Below, piece by piece: positions 13,256-41,047 of a DNA stretch of 49,216 bases. Below the pieces are notes generated by a model. The model did no database searches. It was not told the origin of the DNA and worked only from the letters and a program-made list of their open reading frames with translations. The stretch's first letter is position 1. Every line of letters begins with the position of its first letter. Origin of the DNA: a bacterium (GTDB lineage Bacteria; Patescibacteriota; Microgenomatia; JAADGY01); NCBI GenBank assembly GCA_027028625.1, contig JALVIH010000052.1, positions 1 to 49,216 of the forward strand. Reading direction: 5' to 3'. The translations under genes and the position numbers were made by a program.

Positions 13256-15067
13256 TTATAAGCCAAAGCTGGGCTTAGTTAGAGCCATTAGATAAAGAAT
13301 GTTCCGATGTTCCGAACCATCCAGATCGGTCAGCTGCTGCCTACCAGCCCAAGAATTATATTTATCAACCAAATAACAACCAAAAGGAGAGATAGAGTCC
13401 TGAGCCTGGTTGAGAATAATCTTTTCTAAATGGCTAGAGTAGTTTAATAAACGGCAAGCTACTAAAAATTCTAGCTTTTGATCCAGCGACATCTGACTAA
13501 AATTGTTGGAAATCAGCTCTTCTAATCGACGAATAATTTTGAGATAAAGTTGAGCTTCTGTTTTAATTGGCTGGGCATAAAATAAGGAGGCATTAATGAT
13601 AGCATGAGCCAGGAGATAAAATTCAGAGACTAAATGTTCTTGAAGAGTGAGATTACTTAGTTTTACCTTTCTTAATTGAAGTAAACTTTCGCTATCAAAC
13701 TTAACTATTCTGGGGAAAAAGAGACGGTTCAGAAATATAAAGTCTACCCCCCGACTAGAGAGGACAAATAACTCTTCCGGATGAGCCACCAATCTATCAA
13801 GATAACGGCGAATGAGTTTTTCATCCAATAAATTCAAAACCTCTTCACTTTTTAAACCATAAAGATGGCGGCTAAAAAGGAGAGTAAAGAAAATTTTGTT
13901 GTAAGCTCCTAACCAGGGATATTTCTTAACCACCGGCCAGCGAAAGGGGTGGATACCAACTATTTCTTTCCAGAATAACCCCGCTTGAGCCAGATATCCT
14001 TTAACCAATCTCTTCATCTCTTCTAAATTATCCGGATATAACCGGCGAAGGGTAGGGTGGTTTTTGATGTCTTTATTTCCAAACCACAAATACTGGCGGA
14101 CTAAAAAATGAGCTCGTTTCTTGGGGGAGAGAAATTCCAAGTTAGACCAATAATAATTCTCAACTTTCCGATACAGAGAGGAATTACTATCTCGACACTT
14201 ACTAATCTGCTTGGTTACCAAAACTATTTTTTCAGCAATATTAAAAGGAGTCAAAGCCTGAAGATGCTGCCATTGATTAACTGTATTTACTTCCAAAAAA
14301 TACCACTTCTTTTCTTCTTGATGGTAAATTAAATCTATTCCTGCAATCATCAAATCTAAGTTTGTCGCCAAACGGCTAGCCAGACGGCTTAAGAATGGCT
14401 TCAAGGAACTCTCAACCGGATAAACTTTTCCACCTTGGGAAGCATTGTTTAAAAAGGGATGCTTAGTTCTCACCCGTTTCATCATAGCTACTGCCACTCC
14501 TCCAACAACCATTACTCGGTAATCTCCGTCATTAGGGATAAAATTTTGAAAAACATAAGCTTTCAAATCAGAAAGCTGTTTTATTTCATCCTGCCGAGTA
14601 ATTAAATAACTTCCTTTACCCTCGGCTCCTTTATTAGGCTTGGCAATAAAAGGGTAGTTTAACCAACCTTTTTTTATTAAGAGGTAAAGTTCTTTCTCAC
14701 CAGCAACAATATAAGTAGGAATAAAGTTGATCAGGTGGCTGAAATAATTTTTGATATAAGCCTGCTGAACAGATTTAAAAGTTAGGTAAGGACGGTTGAT
14801 TAGGGAGGGATTAATTATATAGGCCCCTTGACGTTTGGCCTCTAGAAGAAAAACAGTTCGCTGGTCAGCAGAAGAATAATTTTCCTCTAGCTTAGCACTC
14901 CGCCAATAAATAACATCTCCAGGATTGATTAAACCAACCGCTACTCGAGCTGTTGAGGGATTAATAACTCTAAACTCCACCTGCAACTTCTGTGCAGCTT
15001 CTTTTAACTGATGAATATGCCATTTTTGAGATGGAGTATCTTGGCGACTGACTAGAATGAATTTCAT
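13256..15067 (-). CDS. RimK-like ATP-grasp ligase fused to a ~300-aa helical C-terminal domain of unknown function
   Basis: 603 aa. Residues ~120-290 carry ATP-grasp motifs (FIAKPNKGAEGKGSYLI, DYRVMVVGG, NASQGGKVYP, IAGIDLIY...YFLEVN). I do not recognise the C-terminal half. Confidence 0.7.
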   Translation of the reverse strand: MKFILVSRQDTPSQKWHIHQLKEAAQKLQVEFRVINPSTARVAVGLINPGDVIYWRSAKLEENYSSADQRTVFLLEAKRQGAYIINPSLINRPYLTFKSVQQAYIKNYFSHLINFIPTYIVAGEKELYLLIKKGWLNYPFIAKPNKGAEGKGSYLITRQDEIKQLSDLKAYVFQNFIPNDGDYRVMVVGGVAVAMMKRVRTKHPFLNNASQGGKVYPVESSLKPFLSRLASRLATNLDLMIAGIDLIYHQEEKKWYFLEVNTVNQWQHLQALTPFNIAEKIVLVTKQISKCRDSNSSLYRKVENYYWSNLEFLSPKKRAHFLVRQYLWFGNKDIKNHPTLRRLYPDNLEEMKRLVKGYLAQAGLFWKEIVGIHPFRWPVVKKYPWLGAYNKIFFTLLFSRHLYGLKSEEVLNLLDEKLIRRYLDRLVAHPEELFVLSSRGVDFIFLNRLFFPRIVKFDSESLLQLRKVKLSNLTLQEHLVSEFYLLAHAIINASLFYAQPIKTEAQLYLKIIRRLEELISNNFSQMSLDQKLEFLVACRLLNYSSHLEKIILNQAQDSISPFGCYLVDKYNSWAGRQQLTDLDGSEHRNILYLMALTKPSFGL

Positions 15068-19264: not shown

Positions 19265-19293
19265 TTGACAAAACAAAAGGTTAACAGTAAAAT
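19265..19293 (+). promoter_or_regulatory. Sigma70-type promoter of the thrS leader (TTGACA-17-TAAAAT)
   Basis: TTGACA at 19265-19270, 17-nt spacer, TAAAAT at 19288-19293. Confidence 0.6.
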
Positions 19294-19301
19294 AAAAACC
19301 A

Positions 19302-19349
19302 ATGATAGAGTTAATTAACGCCACTACCCAATTAATAACTACTCCTTAA
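19302..19349 (+). CDS. Putative leaderless Thr-rich leader peptide MIELINATTQLITTP (thrS attenuator)
   Basis: ATG lies 8 nt after the -10 box. 15 codons including 4 Thr (ACT ACC; ACT ACT) and 3 Ile. Embedded in alternative helices upstream of thrS. Too short to appear in the ORF track. Confidence 0.55.
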   Translation: MIELINATTQLITTP

Positions 19350-19375
19350 AAGGGGGTAGGGTAGTGGTTAGATAC

Positions 19376-19399
19376 CCTCCCTCTTGGGGAGGTTTTTTT
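19376..19399 (+). terminator. Intrinsic terminator of the thrS leader
   Basis: CCTCCC (19376-19381) pairs with GGGAGG (19387-19392) across a 5-nt loop, followed by T7 (19393-19399). Ends 10 nt before the thrS ATG. Confidence 0.6.
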
Positions 19400-19409
19400 A
19401 TGCTTAAAA

Positions 19410-22740: not shown

Positions 22741-22802
22741 TGATTTGCCATTTTCTAATCTAATTTGTATATGGAGACAAAAATATGATCTAACAGAGCA
22801 CT

Positions 22803-25136
22803 ATGAAGTCAGATATGTTATTATTTAGTCATATGGATTCATCTCCTGAACTTAACAAACCGGGGGGTTTAGGTCCTGAGTCAGCTAATAGTGGAAAATG
22901 GTCCAATATACGAAGGGTGGAACAAACCTTGAAAAAGACCAAAAGTGGTAGTAAACCTAGTCATAGATTAGCAAAAGAACTTCAGGAACTCGGTATTGGC
23001 GTTCTTTTTCCACCTCAAGAACCTAAAGGAAAAGAAGTAAAAGAGGGACAATCTCAGCGGGTTTTGGTAGCAAAAGGTAAATTTCCTCCTAAGAAGGATA
23101 ACCAATCAACCTCAAGAGAGGAACATCAATTAGACCTAATGATGGTAGCCAGACCTTGGCTTTTTTTAGAAAGGATAGCCCAGAAAATACAACAAGAAGA
23201 AGTAGATTTAAGCAAGGTTTTACGACTTTTGGATTCAGACGAGAGACGTGTTCGGGCCGCTCGATTGTTATTAGCTGATGATGAAGGGAGGATAAAAAGT
23301 GGCTTAGAGTTACTACAAACCCTAGATGAGAAAGATCGCCTAAATCTACTAATGTTAATTTCACAATCGGAAGACGGACGAGTAAGAGCAATAGTCAAAA
23401 AATTCTTGGAGGAAAACCAAATCGCTTTACCAAAGGCCGGCAATCAAAGAGTTGATGCGTCTATATTACTACAACCTTTGTCTGAATATGATATCGCCGC
23501 TGCTTCCTCATTGACCCAAGAGGAAGTACATAAATTACTCTCTCGACCCAAAAAAGAAAAAGATCTCGGTAAGATGGGAAAATTAAAAATATCCTCTCCT
23601 TCATTATTCGAAGAGTTTATTAAACAAGTAACTAAAAGAATAGAAAAAGACCCATCCAATTTAGAAGTTTGGATTAGGCGACTTACTAGATTGGTAGATG
23701 TACTACGTTATAAAGGCCAATTATTCAAAATAAACAATCCAGGCGTAGTTGAAACAGTTATCACCTTAGTGGAACAAATATCACCCAAAGGGGGATCTTT
23801 AAAATCAGTTTGGGACTTTTTGGTTAGATTTGAACTTAACTCTTCTGAACTATCGGCATCAATACTAAAATTGATGGAAGCTCATCAAGATCTTGGTCAT
23901 CCATTAGCGCCAGCATTACTATCCCAACTTGATGAAGAACACCCTTTTTATAAGGAACAAGTAAGGAGAATAGCAGAACTTAAAAGGCTAGTTGAGGGGT
24001 CTGTCGAGAAAGTATTTCCTCGGTTTGGGGAAGCAGAAGATTTAGCAAAAAAGATTGTTACCATCTTCCCTAAAGGAAAACCAAGCGAACGCTTCGGCTT
24101 TGATGCTGAAATGTGGCCGAGTATCCTTGGTGTCTCTCTCCCTAAAGGGGTTAATATCGGCGTGGATGGAAGTGGGGAAATTCCGGAGCTGAGACTTGAG
24201 CCAACACCGGGAGTTCTCGCCTACGACCCTCAGTGGCGGCAAAGGTTAGCTGACATGTACTTATGGGGAGAGACAAGCAAGGTAGCCCCCGCCTCAATTC
24301 ATTTACATGTTGACCGGAGTAAAAAAAATCTACCCGAGCAGAGGGTCTTAATGCGAATGCTTTTTGGGGAAAGTATAAATGATCTCAACGAACAAGATAG
24401 TCCTCCAACCTTCGAGGTAAGAATCGCTCTCCAAGATTATCCTATACCTTCTTCGTCTAAGGCAGTTCCTTTCAAAGATGGGTGGAATTTTATTGCTCTT
24501 GCTGATTTTATGGTCGCTATTAAGAGTAGTCAATGTTATCCGGATTTCAGATGGGAGCCACCTCAACCACTAAATCCCATAGCGAAACGCTGGCTGACAG
24601 TGCTTAGGTTAACTAACAATCCAGAAGCAAGAGCAGCAGCAATAATCGCTCTCCACCGAAATATGGGGCTAAGGATTGTGGGCAGGGATTTTGCCTCTCT
24701 TGAGGGGCCAAACCTTCAAGCACTGGAATTATTAGCAGCAAAGTGGCAACCCACAAAGGAGAGGGAAATAGATTTTATGGAGAGGATAGTGGAAGAATCA
24801 GGTGGCGATGAGATGGTAATTGGGCTGGCGATTCATCAGCTACCCCATCTCGACTTGTCCCCAGAGGAGAAAATGGCCTTTGTAAAAAGAGTGACAAGGA
24901 AAGCAGTAAGCCCTAGTGGGGTCGAGGCAGTAGTTCGTCAGCTTCCCTATTTAGACATTCCCCCAAAGGAAAGAAAAGCTTTTGTGAAAGAAATGATCAA
25001 GAAATCCGAAAACGATGTAGATGTGGCTGAGCTAATGATTAGGCAGCTCCATCATCTTAGCCTGCCTAAGAAAGAAAGAATAGCCTTTTTAATGAAGTTA
25101 ATCGAAAGTGGAAAAATTATGAAGACATTGTTCTGA
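22803..25136 (+). CDS. Large hypothetical helical-repeat protein (HEAT-like N-terminal repeats; C-terminal ~37-aa QLPxLxL...ExxxF repeats), interrupted by a frameshift
   Basis: 777-aa ORF with no TM or signal peptide. The repeat array at the C-terminus continues in the -1 frame beyond the stop codon. Confidence 0.7.
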   Translation: MKSDMLLFSHMDSSPELNKPGGLGPESANSGKWSNIRRVEQTLKKTKSGSKPSHRLAKELQELGIGVLFPPQEPKGKEVKEGQSQRVLVAKGKFPPKKDNQSTSREEHQLDLMMVARPWLFLERIAQKIQQEEVDLSKVLRLLDSDERRVRAARLLLADDEGRIKSGLELLQTLDEKDRLNLLMLISQSEDGRVRAIVKKFLEENQIALPKAGNQRVDASILLQPLSEYDIAAASSLTQEEVHKLLSRPKKEKDLGKMGKLKISSPSLFEEFIKQVTKRIEKDPSNLEVWIRRLTRLVDVLRYKGQLFKINNPGVVETVITLVEQISPKGGSLKSVWDFLVRFELNSSELSASILKLMEAHQDLGHPLAPALLSQLDEEHPFYKEQVRRIAELKRLVEGSVEKVFPRFGEAEDLAKKIVTIFPKGKPSERFGFDAEMWPSILGVSLPKGVNIGVDGSGEIPELRLEPTPGVLAYDPQWRQRLADMYLWGETSKVAPASIHLHVDRSKKNLPEQRVLMRMLFGESINDLNEQDSPPTFEVRIALQDYPIPSSSKAVPFKDGWNFIALADFMVAIKSSQCYPDFRWEPPQPLNPIAKRWLTVLRLTNNPEARAAAIIALHRNMGLRIVGRDFASLEGPNLQALELLAAKWQPTKEREIDFMERIVEESGGDEMVIGLAIHQLPHLDLSPEEKMAFVKRVTRKAVSPSGVEAVVRQLPYLDIPPKERKAFVKEMIKKSENDVDVAELMIRQLHHLSLPKKERIAFLMKLIESGKIMKTLF

Positions 25137-25213: not shown

Positions 25214-25534
25214 TTGGAATTTGATTGGGCCCGATCTGCTATCATTGCTGAAGTAGCTAAGCAACTTCTTACCCACCACAGTTGGTCATCAAAGGAAAAA
25301 TTAGACTTTCTAATGGAGGCGATAAAAATGTTAAGAAATTACATGAGAGATTATATGGGTGGTATATATACCCTTAACATGCTCTCACAACTCTCCTTTC
25401 TTGGTTTACCCTCAGAAAAACTCAATACTTTATCTTTGGACTCTTTATTAATGAGTAACCCGCAATTTTACCTGGTATCTAAGGTAATCTTTTCGTATTA
25501 TAAGAAGAAACCTAAATGGTCAAAATTGTTTTAA
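25214..25534 (+). CDS. C-terminal continuation of 22803-25136 in the -1 frame (frame open from 25070)
   Basis: Upstream of the tracked TTG start, the same frame reads ...NYEDIVLTAVKQLPYLDLSPEEERVLIWEITDK. This extends the repeat array with unchanged periodicity. Confidence 0.55.
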   Translation: MEFDWARSAIIAEVAKQLLTHHSWSSKEKLDFLMEAIKMLRNYMRDYMGGIYTLNMLSQLSFLGLPSEKLNTLSLDSLLMSNPQFYLVSKVIFSYYKKKPKWSKLF

Positions 25535-25611
25535 AGAAATCGAAGCCAAGAACTATATGATCTAACGCGGCGATAAGGTTACCAGTGAAAATTATGTTAT
25601 AATATTAGCAA

Positions 25612-26022
25612 ATGCCTAGTGAAACACTACAAGAAAAGACACCTTCACAAGAAAAACTCTCACAAACAGATGTCCTATCTCCAAAAGCAGCAGCATTTTT
25701 AAGAGTATTAGCAGGTAGGTTTAAAGATTCTCCTCGAAATGTAGTTAACACCACTGGACTAACAGATATGGGGGTTGAGCGTTACACCATGTTATTCCAA
25801 AACAAATTAGGACCTATCTTAGAAAGAGTTAGTCAAAATCCTACTTTCGAACAAAAACTCCAAGAATGGTGGCATACTCTTCCTCCAGGGGATACCGAAG
25901 GAACCACTTTTATCACAATTGACGAAAAGGGAGTAGAGGAACTACTAGCATTCTTCAATGCAAATGGGGCTGAGCTAGTGAGAGGAGAGCTTCAGTTTTT
26001 AATAAATCGAGTCTTTGTTTAA
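25612..26022 (+). CDS. Hypothetical protein (136 aa, ORFan)
   Basis: ORF preceded by TGtTATAAT (25595-25603), 8 nt before the ATG. No recognisable motifs. Confidence 0.55.
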   Translation: MPSETLQEKTPSQEKLSQTDVLSPKAAAFLRVLAGRFKDSPRNVVNTTGLTDMGVERYTMLFQNKLGPILERVSQNPTFEQKLQEWWHTLPPGDTEGTTFITIDEKGVEELLAFFNANGAELVRGELQFLINRVFV

Positions 26023-26038
26023 TAAAGTTGCTACTTTA

Positions 26039-26067
26039 TTGACAAGAAATATTTCTGGGGATAATAT
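26039..26067 (+). promoter_or_regulatory. Sigma70-type promoter of the tyrS-operon leader (TTGACA-17-TAATAT)
   Basis: TTGACA at 26039-26044, 17-nt spacer, TAATAT at 26062-26067, then 6 nt to ATG 26074. Confidence 0.6.
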
Positions 26068-26073
26068 AACACT

Positions 26074-26145
26074 ATGTTATTAAGTCTATCTCACACTAAC
26101 ACTTATTATTACGTTAACCTTCGGGGAGGTGGGGTAGGCAAGTAG
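26074..26145 (+). CDS. Putative leaderless Tyr-Tyr-Tyr leader peptide MLLSLSHTNTYYYVNLRGGGVGK (tyrS-operon attenuator)
   Basis: 23 codons with TAT TAT TAC at 26104-26112. Codons 19-21 encode the antiterminator strand GGTGGGG. Too short to appear in the ORF track. Confidence 0.55.
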   Translation: MLLSLSHTNTYYYVNLRGGGVGK

Positions 26146-26178
26146 TATATTTACTCCCAAAAATTTAAAAAATCAGAC

Positions 26179-26201
26179 CCCACCTTTTCGGTGGGTTTTT
26201 T
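26179..26201 (+). terminator. Intrinsic terminator of the tyrS-operon leader
   Basis: CCCACC (26179-26184) pairs with GGTGGG (26190-26195) across a 5-nt loop, then T6 (26196-26201). Ends 15 nt before the SD-led ATG at 26217. Confidence 0.6.
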
Positions 26202-26216
26202 ATTAGGGAGCTGTTT

Positions 26217-26747
26217 ATGAAAAAAATACAAATAGGTGTCATGGGCTCTATGGCGGACATAAAACTAAGACAAACCTCAGTTGCCTTAGCTAGAGAGTTA
26301 GGGAGAGAAATAGGAAAAAGAGGAGCATTGTTAGTATTTGGTTACGAAGGGGATTTTGATTCCCTACCTGAAATAGCTGCCCGAGCAGCTGAAAAAGAGG
26401 GTGGACAAACTCTAGCCTTTCTTTGGGGAGATAACAAAAGGACAGCTAAAGATTTGTCCTCCATCAGAATAAGAACTGGGCAGATTCAAGGCGGGGGGAG
26501 AGAATTCCCCTTAGTTTTAAGCTGTGATGTTTTAATCTGCATCGGCGGCGGATCAGGAACATTAACCGAAATAGCCATAGCCTACCAAGCAAACATTCCT
26601 ATTGTGGTCTTAGCAAATTCAGGCGGTTGGAGTCAAAAACTAGCTGGTAAGTTCTTAGATGCCCGAAAAAGAGTAAAAATCACAGCAGCTAGAGATGCAG
26701 AAGAAGCTGTTAATATGGCTATCAAATTAGCAAGTTCTGTTCTATAA
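26217..26747 (+). CDS. TIGR00725/LOG-superfamily (SLOG) Rossmann protein
   Basis: 176 aa with IGVMGS at the N-terminus and ICIGGGSGTLTEIAIAY...IPIVVL (GGxGTxxE-type motif). GGGAG lies 7 nt upstream. 6 nt separate it from tyrS. Confidence 0.6.
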   Translation: MKKIQIGVMGSMADIKLRQTSVALARELGREIGKRGALLVFGYEGDFDSLPEIAARAAEKEGGQTLAFLWGDNKRTAKDLSSIRIRTGQIQGGGREFPLVLSCDVLICIGGGSGTLTEIAIAYQANIPIVVLANSGGWSQKLAGKFLDARKRVKITAARDAEEAVNMAIKLASSVL

Positions 26748-26753
26748 TAACTT

Positions 26754-27968
26754 ATGACTGTTATAACTGATGAAAAGTTAGTTGACCAGGTTCTAGATCG
26801 AGGGGTAGTAGAGATCCTGCCTTCTAAAAAGGAGTTTAAAGAACTTCTCCTCTCGGGGAAAAAAATTAGGCTTTACCTCGGTGTTGACCCGACTGGCTTT
26901 GAACTTCATCTAGGCCACTCATTAGCCTTGCGCAAACTTCAACAGTTTGCCGACCTTGGCCATGAAGTCATCCTTCTTTTGGGCACTTTTACTGGAATGA
27001 TCGGTGATCCCACCGGCAAGGACCAAACACGGACACCATTGACTTTTGAACAGATTCAAAAAAATATGGCTGATTACCAACGCCAGGCAGCCAAGATTCT
27101 TGACTTTTCCCGAGTCAAAATTAAGTACAACCACACTTGGCTGGCTAAACTTACCTTCGAAGAGATTATTAAATTAGCCGGTAACTTTACCGTTCAACAG
27201 ATGATTGAGCGGGATATGTTCCAGCGGCGATTAAAAGAAAATAAGCCTATCCACCTTCATGAGTTCTTTTACCCCTTAATGCAAGGCTACGACTCGGTCG
27301 CTATGGACGTTGATCTGGAAATTGGCGGCACTGATCAAACCTTTAATATGTTGGCCGGGCGGACCTTGATGAAAAAAATAAGGAATAAAGATAAGTTTGT
27401 TTTAACAATTCCTCTTTTGTTAGGCTTAGACGGCCGCAAAATGAGTAAAACTTACAACAACTACATCTCATTAACAGACAGTCCTCAGGATGTTTATGGC
27501 AAGACTATGCGCCTTCAAGACGAGCTGATTATTGATTGGTTTAAACTTCTTACTGACTTGCCGACAGAGGAAATAGAAGAGATGAAGCAAAAGATGAAAA
27601 AAGGCCAACTCAATCCAATGGAAGCAAAAAAACGTTTAGCTTTCATTCTGACTAGCTGGCTGCACAATGAAAAAGAGGCTCGAAAAGCCCAGCTTTACTT
27701 CGAGGATGTTTACCAAAAAAGACAACTCCCCCAAACTATTGAGGAAGTAAATCTAAAAGCAGACAAATATTCTCTTTTAACTCTCTTAAAGCAGCTGCCA
27801 ACCTCCCTTTCCAGCCGAAAGTTAAAACAATTAATCCTTCAAGGGGGGATAAGGCTCAACCAAAAAGTTGTTAATAACCCCACCAAAATAATAGAACTAA
27901 AAGAAGGAGAAAAAATCACTTTAAAAATAGGCAAACATTTATTTTTAAACTTAAAGGGGACCAAATGA
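26754..27968 (+). CDS. tyrS: Tyrosyl-tRNA synthetase
   Basis: 404 aa with the HIGH motif as ELHLGHS, KMSKS as KMSKT, and a C-terminal S4-like domain (SSRKLKQLILQGGIRLNQKVV). Confidence 0.95.
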   Translation: MTVITDEKLVDQVLDRGVVEILPSKKEFKELLLSGKKIRLYLGVDPTGFELHLGHSLALRKLQQFADLGHEVILLLGTFTGMIGDPTGKDQTRTPLTFEQIQKNMADYQRQAAKILDFSRVKIKYNHTWLAKLTFEEIIKLAGNFTVQQMIERDMFQRRLKENKPIHLHEFFYPLMQGYDSVAMDVDLEIGGTDQTFNMLAGRTLMKKIRNKDKFVLTIPLLLGLDGRKMSKTYNNYISLTDSPQDVYGKTMRLQDELIIDWFKLLTDLPTEEIEEMKQKMKKGQLNPMEAKKRLAFILTSWLHNEKEARKAQLYFEDVYQKRQLPQTIEEVNLKADKYSLLTLLKQLPTSLSSRKLKQLILQGGIRLNQKVVNNPTKIIELKEGEKITLKIGKHLFLNLKGTK

Positions 27969-40789: not shown

Positions 40790-41047
40790 ATGTTAACTCT
40801 AAAACTAAGGAGAAGCGGTCGAAAAGGACTGCCTTTTTATCATCTAGTCGTTGCAGAAAAAAGATCTAAAGTCTTGGGTAAATTCCGAGACAAGATAGGT
40901 TACTATAACCCCCTTGATGAGAAGGATGGCTTTAAGCTCGACCAGAAAAAACTCACTTATTGGTTGTCTCAAGGAGTTATACTAAGTGAGGGCATTAGAA
41001 AATTATTTAAACATTTTAAGGTAAAAACAAATGTCGGAACTAACTGA
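40790..41047 (+). CDS. rpsP: 30S ribosomal protein S16
   Basis: MLTLKLRRSGRKGLPFYHLVVAEKRSK...IGYYNP. Confidence 0.95.
   Translation: MLTLKLRRSGRKGLPFYHLVVAEKRSKVLGKFRDKIGYYNPLDEKDGFKLDQKKLTYWLSQGVILSEGIRKLFKHFKVKTNVGTN

Follow-up and report, generated by a model that had tools for sequence, protein, structure and literature searches.

In Streptomyces lividans, RNA sequencing has placed leaderless leader peptides and hairpins before the aminoacyl-tRNA synthetase (aaRS) genes alaS, thrS, trpS and leuS, giving the pairs alaL-alaS, thrL-thrS, trpL2-trpS and leuL2-leuS (PMC8079986). For Streptomyces, classical attenuators have also been predicted upstream of trpS and leuS; among gamma-proteobacteria the corresponding example is pheST (PMC1262725). 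Here, a candidate attenuator is described from a stretch of 49,216 nucleotides (nt) of DNA (contig JALVIH010000052.1 of assembly GCA_027028625.1, positions 1 to 49,216 of the forward strand; hereafter the window) from a bacterium of the Microgenomatia, within the Patescibacteriota or Candidate Phyla Radiation (CPR); by its TyrRS relatives, too, the window falls in 'Candidatus Microgenomates'. It lies immediately upstream of a SLOG/LOG-like gene and tyrS, and consists of a short open reading frame (ORF) with three consecutive Tyr codons, followed by an intrinsic terminator. The likeness to Streptomyces is close, in that a cognate-codon-rich short ORF at the 5' end of the transcript is followed by one or more hairpins, with or without a U-tract, and then by an aaRS gene; a thrS case is found in both. 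The Streptomyces leaders differ in that they belong to Actinobacteria and not to CPR/Microgenomates, and no tyrS or Tyr example is listed for them (PMC8079986). Several of them are without a clear U-tract, whereas the terminator here is canonical, and only here does a SLOG gene lie between the leader and the aaRS gene.

Other attenuators offer further points of comparison. The pheM-pheST, trp, his and pheA leaders of Escherichia coli share with the present element the 1:2, 2:3 and 3:4 helices, a cognate codon run, an intrinsic terminator and a stop codon placed so that the terminating ribosome blocks segment 2; pheST is the precedent for an aaRS operon under leader attenuation (cited in PMC11802643 and PMC1262725). 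The E. coli leader ORFs are led by a Shine-Dalgarno (SD) sequence, whereas the ORF here is leaderless, and there is no sequence similarity. In Corynebacterium glutamicum, the leader peptide aroR (Phe-Tyr-Phe) attenuates the 3-deoxy-D-arabino-heptulosonate 7-phosphate (DAHP) synthase operon aroF (Neshat et al. 2014, via PMC11802643). It is the direct analogue of leaders found in two relatives of the window (L094 and L097, below), which likewise have DAHP synthase downstream; the window leader, in contrast, has Tyr codons only and precedes SLOG-tyrS, and aroR reportedly answers Phe, not Tyr. In mycobacteria, leaderless polycysteine small ORFs act as translational attenuators of a 'Cys ribulon' (bioRxiv 10.1101/834739). 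These too are leaderless sensory ORFs with single-codon runs, several loci answering one amino-acid signal, but the competing structure here is an intrinsic transcription terminator. Finally, the T-box before tyrS of the Bacillus subtilis type also couples uncharged tRNA-Tyr to more TyrRS through an antiterminator and a terminator; it binds the tRNA directly, whereas the sensor proposed here is the translating ribosome.

We consider it probable, at roughly 0.77, that the window element is a classical leader-peptide attenuator, in which the translating ribosome sets transcription according to the supply of charged tRNA-Tyr. What the analysis establishes is the anatomy of the leader, its mutually exclusive helices and the degree to which these are conserved. 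The parts of the leader are as follows.

26039-26067, forward strand: sigma-70-type promoter TTGACA-17-TAATAT (-35 at 26039-44, 17-nt spacer, -10 at 26062-67), read from the sequence.
26074-26145, forward strand: leaderless leader ORF encoding MLLSLSHTNTYYYVNLRGGGVGK, 23 codons plus the stop TAG (26143-45); its ATG is 6 nt past the -10.
26084-26094, forward strand: segment 1, the 5' arm of the anti-antiterminator helix 1:2 (RNAfold of 26074-26176).
26104-26112, forward strand: putative regulatory codons TAT TAT TAC (Tyr-Tyr-Tyr), codons 11-13 of the mini-ORF.
26116-26139, forward strand: segment 2, the G-rich switch strand, of which 26129-39 pairs with segment 1 and 26128-35 (extendable back to 26116) pairs with segments 3/4.
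26177-26184, forward strand: segment 3, ACCCCACC, at once the antiterminator target and the terminator 5' arm.
26190-26201, forward strand: segment 4, GGTGGG (26190-95, the terminator 3' arm), with T6 (26196-26201).

An earlier sequence-only reading had placed the promoter, ATG 26074, the mini-ORF, its Tyr codons, the terminator and the GGTGGGG/CCCCACC complement, and each of these was found at its position. The terminator comprises CCCACC (26179-84), a 5-nt loop, GGTGGG (26190-95) and T6 (26196-201), while the core of the antiterminator is GGTGGGG (26128-34), complementary to CCCCACC (26178-84). Across the 12 kb scanned, the promoter at 26039 shares the highest consensus match (10/12); promoter-like sites overall were no more numerous there than in shuffled sequence. 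The 5' end of the RNA is expected at ATG 26074. Leaderless starts without an SD are common in the window, many lying 5-8 nt past a TATAAT-like box; about a fifth of all genes look leaderless, with a -10 box 5-9 nt ahead of the start, as do most of the CPR tyrS genes retrieved. Because the 6-nt spacing from the -10 matches that of the leaderless genes, the ATG of the mini-ORF stands where this lineage puts its real starts.

Chance resemblance was assessed over the whole window. Its intergenic DNA holds only three strong intrinsic terminators in 49 kb (19376-19392, 26179-26195 and 40815-40832), while most genes have none; two of the three belong to the leaders of thrS and SLOG/tyrS, where they lie about 20 nt short of a gene start. 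Among 432 ATG mini-ORFs of 10-40 codons, three contain Tyr-Tyr-Tyr and one contains the double Thr-Thr of the thrS type, the latter being the thrS leader itself. The only two units in the window made up of a promoter, a leaderless ORF, a terminator and a gene are the Tyr and Thr leaders, each of which matches the aaRS downstream.

No Rfam family reached its gathering score across the window. At E<=10, the region 25900-26350 gave only weak, sub-threshold matches to small RNA and leader models, driven by the terminator, and no T-box; the Trp_leader, His_leader and Thr_leader models scored 14.4, 14.1 and 13.6 bits against thresholds of 41, 49 and 55, matching the terminator only. A tRNA scan of the window found none. 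The Tyr leader functions like the Rfam leader families, yet without sequence membership in any of them. These searches bear on the idea that the element is a T-box or another tRNA-sensing riboswitch with UAC as its specifier codon, to which we give hardly any credence. The position upstream of tyrS would suit it, as would the UGGN-like stretch GGUGGGG in the antiterminator strand. Besides the missing T-box match at either threshold, the distance of about 105 nt from start to terminator is too short for a Stem I and an antiterminator, neither a Stem I nor a K-turn nor a T-box sequence is present, and the ATG at the transcript start, together with the conserved frame, points to translation.

The helices were then defined by folding. 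In the whole leader (26074-26204), the minimum free energy (MFE) structure given by RNAfold is an antiterminator of about 20 bp (26116-26135 paired with 26177-26197) that engulfs both arms of the terminator. It had been described from sequence as a 7-bp helix with one extension; the core of that description holds, its extent does not. In RNA without segments 3 and 4, the 11-bp helix 1:2 (26084-26094 with 26129-26139) is formed, where previously only a weak 1:2 hairpin had been noted and occlusion by the ribosome suggested as its substitute. Because this helix is present, the Tyr leader, as modelled, is of the full classical 1:2 / 2:3 / 3:4 design. Each structural hallmark of classical attenuators that is testable in silico was found: a credible translation start, the cognate codons, the terminator, the exclusive 2:3 and 3:4 helices, helix 1:2 and the placement of the stop. 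The terminator hairpin alone was computed at -10.9 kcal/mol, and in relatives its stem is of 7-10 bp.

Three ribosome states were modelled in six leaders, drawn from the two clades described below, by stage-wise folding of only the RNA lying 3' of an E. coli-sized ribosome footprint. This replaced equilibrium folding with masked footprints, which was rejected on account of pairs spanning the ribosome and an unphysical helix 1:2 around it. When a Tyr codon occupies the A site in the window leader, GGUGGGGU (26128-35) pairs with ACCCCACC before segment 4 exists, and helix 2:3 is formed in 6/6 leaders with the ribosome on their aromatic codons; in the window, the antiterminator is also favoured at equilibrium under a stalled ribosome, at -22 to -28 kcal/mol against the value for the hairpin alone. 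With the ribosome at the stop, where its footprint lies over 26128-26155, only the terminator is formed, again in 6/6. In the absence of a ribosome, helix 1:2 is the MFE structure in four of the six, and helix 2:3 in L001 and L081. The sequence-only reading had proposed a leaderless Tyr-codon leader that drives a choice between antiterminator and terminator before the LOG-like gene and tyrS; anatomy, stage-wise folding and comparison agree on this, and the core of the attenuator reading is supported by all three.

From this anatomy we infer the transcription start, the translation of the mini-ORF, ribosome stalling and the tyrosine response. The transcript would begin with the A of ATG 26074 or a neighbouring nucleotide and would be leaderless, its first 23 codons being translated immediately. 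When Tyr-tRNA is plentiful, the ribosome would reach UAG 26143-45 and sit on the 3' portion of segment 2, the G-rich strand; the hairpin CCCACC/GGUGGG with its U6 would then form, and transcription would stop at about 26201. If the leader were not translated, segment 1 (26084-94) would pair with segment 2 (26129-39) and the terminator would again form. When Tyr-tRNA is scarce, the ribosome would stall on UAU UAU UAC (26104-12), keeping segment 1 off segment 2 and leaving GGUGGGGU free to pair with ACCCCACC as the latter emerges. The terminator would thereby be blocked, and RNA polymerase would read into the SLOG gene and on into tyrS.

Relatives of the locus were reached through protein searches and look-ups of contigs holding the exact protein, and are designated by L numbers. 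The comparison suggested from sequence, for a Tyr-run mini-ORF in relatives, was borne out in some of them: the same unit is kept in three further sequences, namely L001 and L081 (TyrRS 94% identical, leader 92% identical in nucleotides) and L085, whose tyrS is 100% and whose leader is 95% identical to that of L081, and an aromatic counterpart occurs in L094/L097. The first three keep the promoter (with 2-3 substitutions), the ATG spacing, the frame, the 23-codon length, the stop and all helices. TAT TAT TAC is invariant in the four sequences of the window clade. The encoded peptide reads MLLSLSHTNTYYYINH[W/R]GSGVGK in L001/L081 and MLSSPSYITTYYYLNHRGSGVGK in L085, each followed by a stop; 4-10 of its 23 residues change. 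In 4/4 sequences every pair of helix 1:2 (100%) is kept, and its pair 26087-26136 runs U-A, U.G and C-G. In L085 the DNA 5' of the promoter is unrelated (46% identity), while the unit is still joined to the SLOG gene.

A side observation concerns L081 and L085. Between L081 1671-1710 and L085 14462-14501 (corresponding to window 26074-26113), eight differences are packed into leader codons 2-9, despite SLOG DNA that is 99.1% identical and tyrS that is 100% identical. Pairing with segment 2 is kept across the patch, which marks either a breakpoint of recombination or a part of the leader that is hypervariable.

The behaviour of the peptide is informative about a different proposal, that the unit makes a stand-alone product unrelated to the genes downstream, either a terminated small regulatory RNA of about 128 nt or a functional micro-protein of 23 residues. 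A discrete unit of promoter and terminator, and the weak sub-threshold Rfam matches to small RNA and leader models, terminator-driven as they are, could be cited for it. We regard this as very unlikely, however, as the peptide is not conserved (the 4-10 differing residues are found in near-identical strains) and in L094 it is unrelated save for an aromatic run and a Gly tail. Moreover, the unit always lies 15-25 nt 5' of an SD-bearing gene, and no Rfam family was found at threshold.

The second clade would extend the putative leader-peptide attenuator to another gene order. In two species (L094-L096 and L097/L098, TyrRS 71%), it is a DAHP synthase gene that precedes tyrS. Two tandem units lie 5' of that gene (L094 8799-9133; L097 2805-3139), and the neighbour on the other side is divergent. 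Unit 1 has a promoter TTGACA…TAAAAT and a leaderless ATG that opens MNCTPFLTQFYPFYFYPYKKGGEGV (MSFIPFLTQFYPFYFYPHKKGGEGV in L097), a mini-ORF of the …FYPFYFYPY… type with an aromatic run and a Gly tail, the peptide being otherwise unlike that of the window. The ORF is followed by the G-rich GGGTGGGGAAGGTGTG, an A-rich spacer, and then AACCCCACC and GGTGGGGTT, 8 nt apart, with T6. The GGTGGGG core is invariant in 6/6 leaders of both clades, as is segment 3, ACCCCACC; the terminator arms are identical to those of the window, and the aromatic codons of L094/L097 align with the window Tyr codons (MAFFT). Segment 1 of the second clade has a different sequence and is again complementary to its own segment 2. 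When the six sequences of both clades are folded jointly by RNAalifold, helix 1:2 and the terminator are recovered, and 2 pairs are compensatory. It appears from these sequences that the window leader and the aromatic attenuator of the sister clade are probably homologues. We further infer that the leader was re-targeted from DAHP synthase to SLOG, with only the Tyr codons left in the genus of the window, that direction being the one which the comparison suggests.

Unit 2 encodes MLNPICQLTTYFWFFYFPP and has its own terminator, CCCTCC/GGAGGG. In L097/L098 its mini-ORF carries an in-frame TAA at codon 7, behind which the aromatic codons are still in frame; decay, an alternative start or read-through could each account for this. 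Divergent from tyrS lies a fused prephenate dehydrogenase/prephenate dehydratase gene (PDH_N + TYRAAT1_C + PDT; L094 7155-8519 and L100 17793-19163, both on the reverse strand). With the DAHP synthase gene, it indicates that some members of the family keep parts of aromatic amino-acid biosynthesis beside tyrS.

The invariance of the arms could also be taken to mean that the element, though a real attenuator, reads another signal, such as the status of translation or coupling (any slowing of the ribosome), or a trans-acting protein or small ligand bound to the G-rich segment. GGUGGGG and the C-rich arm, unchanged over two clades, could equally be a binding site; autoregulation is conceivable, since proteins of the SLOG type (Pfam LDcluster4) are predicted to bind nucleotides or ligands; and C. 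glutamicum aroR reportedly answers Phe, not Tyr, despite its Tyr codon (PMC11802643). Nevertheless, this seems improbable. The codon run tracks the function downstream, with Tyr before SLOG-tyrS, Phe/Tyr/Trp before DAHP synthase and Thr before thrS; no Rfam riboswitch or T-box match was found even at E<=10; and L094/L097 have identical arms yet no SLOG gene.

Further evidence for the charged-tRNA sensor comes from the sister element in the same window, which precedes thrS.

19266-19402, forward strand: thrS leader, with promoter TTGACA-17-TAAAAT, ATG after 8 nt, leaderless ORF encoding MIELINATTQLITTP and a stop, and terminator CCCTCCC/GGGGAGG with T7.

In this leader it is the Thr codons themselves (CCACUACCC, ACUACUCC) that form helix 1:2, with GGGGGUAGGGUAGUGG (also given as GGGGGTAGGGTAGTGG), and the folding z-score is -3.06. 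That thrS has a parallel cognate-codon attenuator had been proposed from sequence, and the comparison confirms it, the design being conserved in six lineages. Each leader is leaderless and has a terminator behind it, and in the relatives (L085-L092, L094 and L100) the peptides differ and the Thr runs are longer. The Thr runs by lineage are of 2+2, 4+2, 6, 7 and 2+2 codons. Leader peptides of relatives are MIELITTTTKLVTTP (ThrRS 92%) and MLNPKTTTTTTFITL (82%), and more distant ones are MLVSNNLTTTTTTTA (73%) and MLSTANHTTILFTTA (73%); the last belongs to the L002 genome, whose tyrS is without a leader. On this sequence evidence leader-peptide attenuation appears to be a family trait for thrS, and for thrS only is it family-wide. 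Because it is such a trait, the attenuator reading of the Tyr unit becomes much more credible.

The genes that the Tyr leader is predicted to control are the following.

26205-26747, forward strand: SD sequence AGGGAG (26205-10) and SLOG/LOG-like gene (26217-26747, Pfam LDcluster4).
26743-27968, forward strand: tyrS (26754-27968), including its own -10-like TATAAT (26743-48), 5 nt before the ATG; no SD.

Between the T-tract and the SLOG ATG (26217) there are only 15 nt, which include the SD; since the gap leaves no room for a promoter, the SLOG gene must be transcribed through the terminator. It is the only certain target of the predicted leader. SLOG and tyrS are separated by a gap of 6 nt without a terminator, and tyrS is a probable second target via read-through. 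The TATAAT at 26743-48 is perfect and overlaps the SLOG stop, while its -35 is degenerate (TATCAA) and lies inside the SLOG coding sequence. This TATAAT is homologous to the TTGnnT-17-TATAAT-6-ATG promoters of tyrS in L002, L093, L094 and L097; the -35 appears to have decayed to TATCAA, and the TATAAT may be a residual internal promoter. It may be that tyrS owns a weak promoter and receives read-through transcripts as well. Where the sequence-only reading spoke of a tyrS operon, the SLOG gene stands as a target and tyrS is uncertain.

A number of results count against the tyrosine-sensing attenuator. With its own TATAAT and no SD, tyrS is not certainly controlled by the leader. The z-score for folding of the whole leader is only -1.9, and the size of the ribosome footprint was borrowed from E. 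coli. In L001, L081 and L085, the terminator wins at equilibrium when the ribosome occupies the second or third Tyr codon (12 or 13). When it occupies codon 11, both masking schemes favour the antiterminator for L081 and L085, and L001 gives the terminator in the single scheme that tested this codon. The terminator is stronger in these three than in the window. Since it wins at equilibrium with the ribosome on codon 12/13, the choice of the antiterminator in them must, under this model, be partly kinetic. The switch of the E. coli trp leader works kinetically. Covarying helices, which the sequence-only reading expected upstream of tyrS, did not emerge above chance: for helix 1:2, in four similar sequences, the count was not above shuffles (375/500 reach it), and in the same close sequences helices 2:3 and 3:4 are near-invariant and uninformative. 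Formal covariation is compatible with the helices and not significant.

The distribution of the leader is a further difficulty. At 74 other CPR tyrS loci there is no Tyr-run mini-ORF with a terminator, and YY-containing mini-ORFs are no commoner there than those with other doublets; a CPR-wide Tyr attenuator was rejected on these grounds. The suggestion from sequence of a lineage-wide alternative to T-box control is consequently too broad for tyrS; only the thrS leader is conserved family-wide. The nearest relatives without a SLOG gene (L093, L002 and L003, with TyrRS at 81%, 74% and 73%) have no leader, and their tyrS genes are directly leaderless, starting 6-9 nt past a -10 box. Nor is there a leader at SLOG homologues of <=74% identity (L082-L084), which do not adjoin tyrS; because these lack it, the leader is not a trait of the SLOG family. 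In addition, we know of no link between a SLOG/LOG-like enzyme and tyrosine.

Several of these points would fit a simpler account, in which a constitutive leaky terminator or insulator ends upstream transcripts, from the 136-aa gene or the 26039 promoter, and the Tyr mini-ORF arose by chance in DNA rich in A and T. Expression of the SLOG gene and tyrS would then depend on unregulated read-through and on the internal -10 of tyrS. The TATAAT 5 nt before the tyrS ATG, the lack of significant covariation, the modest z-score and the absence of the leader from most relatives count in its favour. Against this stands the fact that three more strains keep the promoter, frame, stop and Tyr triplet while neighbouring codons change, that the design recurs with aromatic codons in L094/L097, where no co-directional gene lies upstream, and that the L085 leader persists beside unrelated DNA 5' of its promoter. 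The parallel thrS leader, with Thr runs in six lineages, and the rarity of the Tyr triplet (3/432 mini-ORFs) also disfavour it, and we judge such an account unlikely. The narrower possibility, raised by the sequence-only reading against its own proposal, that the hairpin is the terminator of the upstream 136-aa gene, was rejected: the unit is kept in L085, where the upstream DNA is unrelated, and in L094, where the upstream gene is divergent, on the other strand.

The mechanism of leader-peptide attenuation and its leaderless aaRS versions are already known; what is new is the phylum, the specificity for Tyr/tyrS and SLOG as the target. The advance is taxonomic and contextual, not conceptual. 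Within the literature library searched, no paper was found that ties Patescibacteria/CPR to leader peptides or T-boxes.

Members of the CPR/Patescibacteria have tiny genomes with few recognisable regulators, and almost nothing is known experimentally of their gene control. A well-formed leader-peptide attenuator would imply that transcription is coupled to translation, that intrinsic termination works and that leaderless initiation is efficient, and it offers a concrete and cheap handle on these properties. It would also flag the SLOG/LOG-like gene as co-regulated with tyrosine decoding. Comparison across the family outlines how such leaders arise, pass to a new target (SLOG in place of DAHP synthase) and disappear, while tyrS retains a leaderless promoter of its own. 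It is tempting, if on the whole doubtful, to suppose that this Microgenomates family runs a 'ribulon' of leaderless leader-peptide attenuators (thrS, aromatic DAHP synthase-tyrS and Tyr-only) as its main form of amino-acid sensing in place of T-boxes, with the Tyr sensor re-wired onto a SLOG/LOG-like enzyme in the genus of the window. If so, the uncharacterised, nucleotide-processing SLOG protein would join the response to undercharging of tRNA-Tyr, with a role for example in tRNA or nucleotide salvage linked to tyrosine decoding, and transcription and translation would be tightly coupled in these ultra-small cells.

The DNA 5' of the leader contains three ORFs without a Pfam match (22803-25136, 25214-25534 and 25612-26022, of 777, 106 and 136 aa). 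L085 has other genes in their place and L002, L003 and L094 lack them, and the stretch from rplT to the tyrS locus appears to be a variable region. A 12-mer, ATATGATCTAAC, occurs at 22783-22794 and 25555-25566, two exact copies against 0.18 expected, 5' of the Pfam-less ORFs at 22803 and 25612. Its context is longer and A-rich, as in gagacaaaaatatgatctaac. In L085 the same 12-mer is found twice at about 14350-14420, just 5' of the leader promoter.

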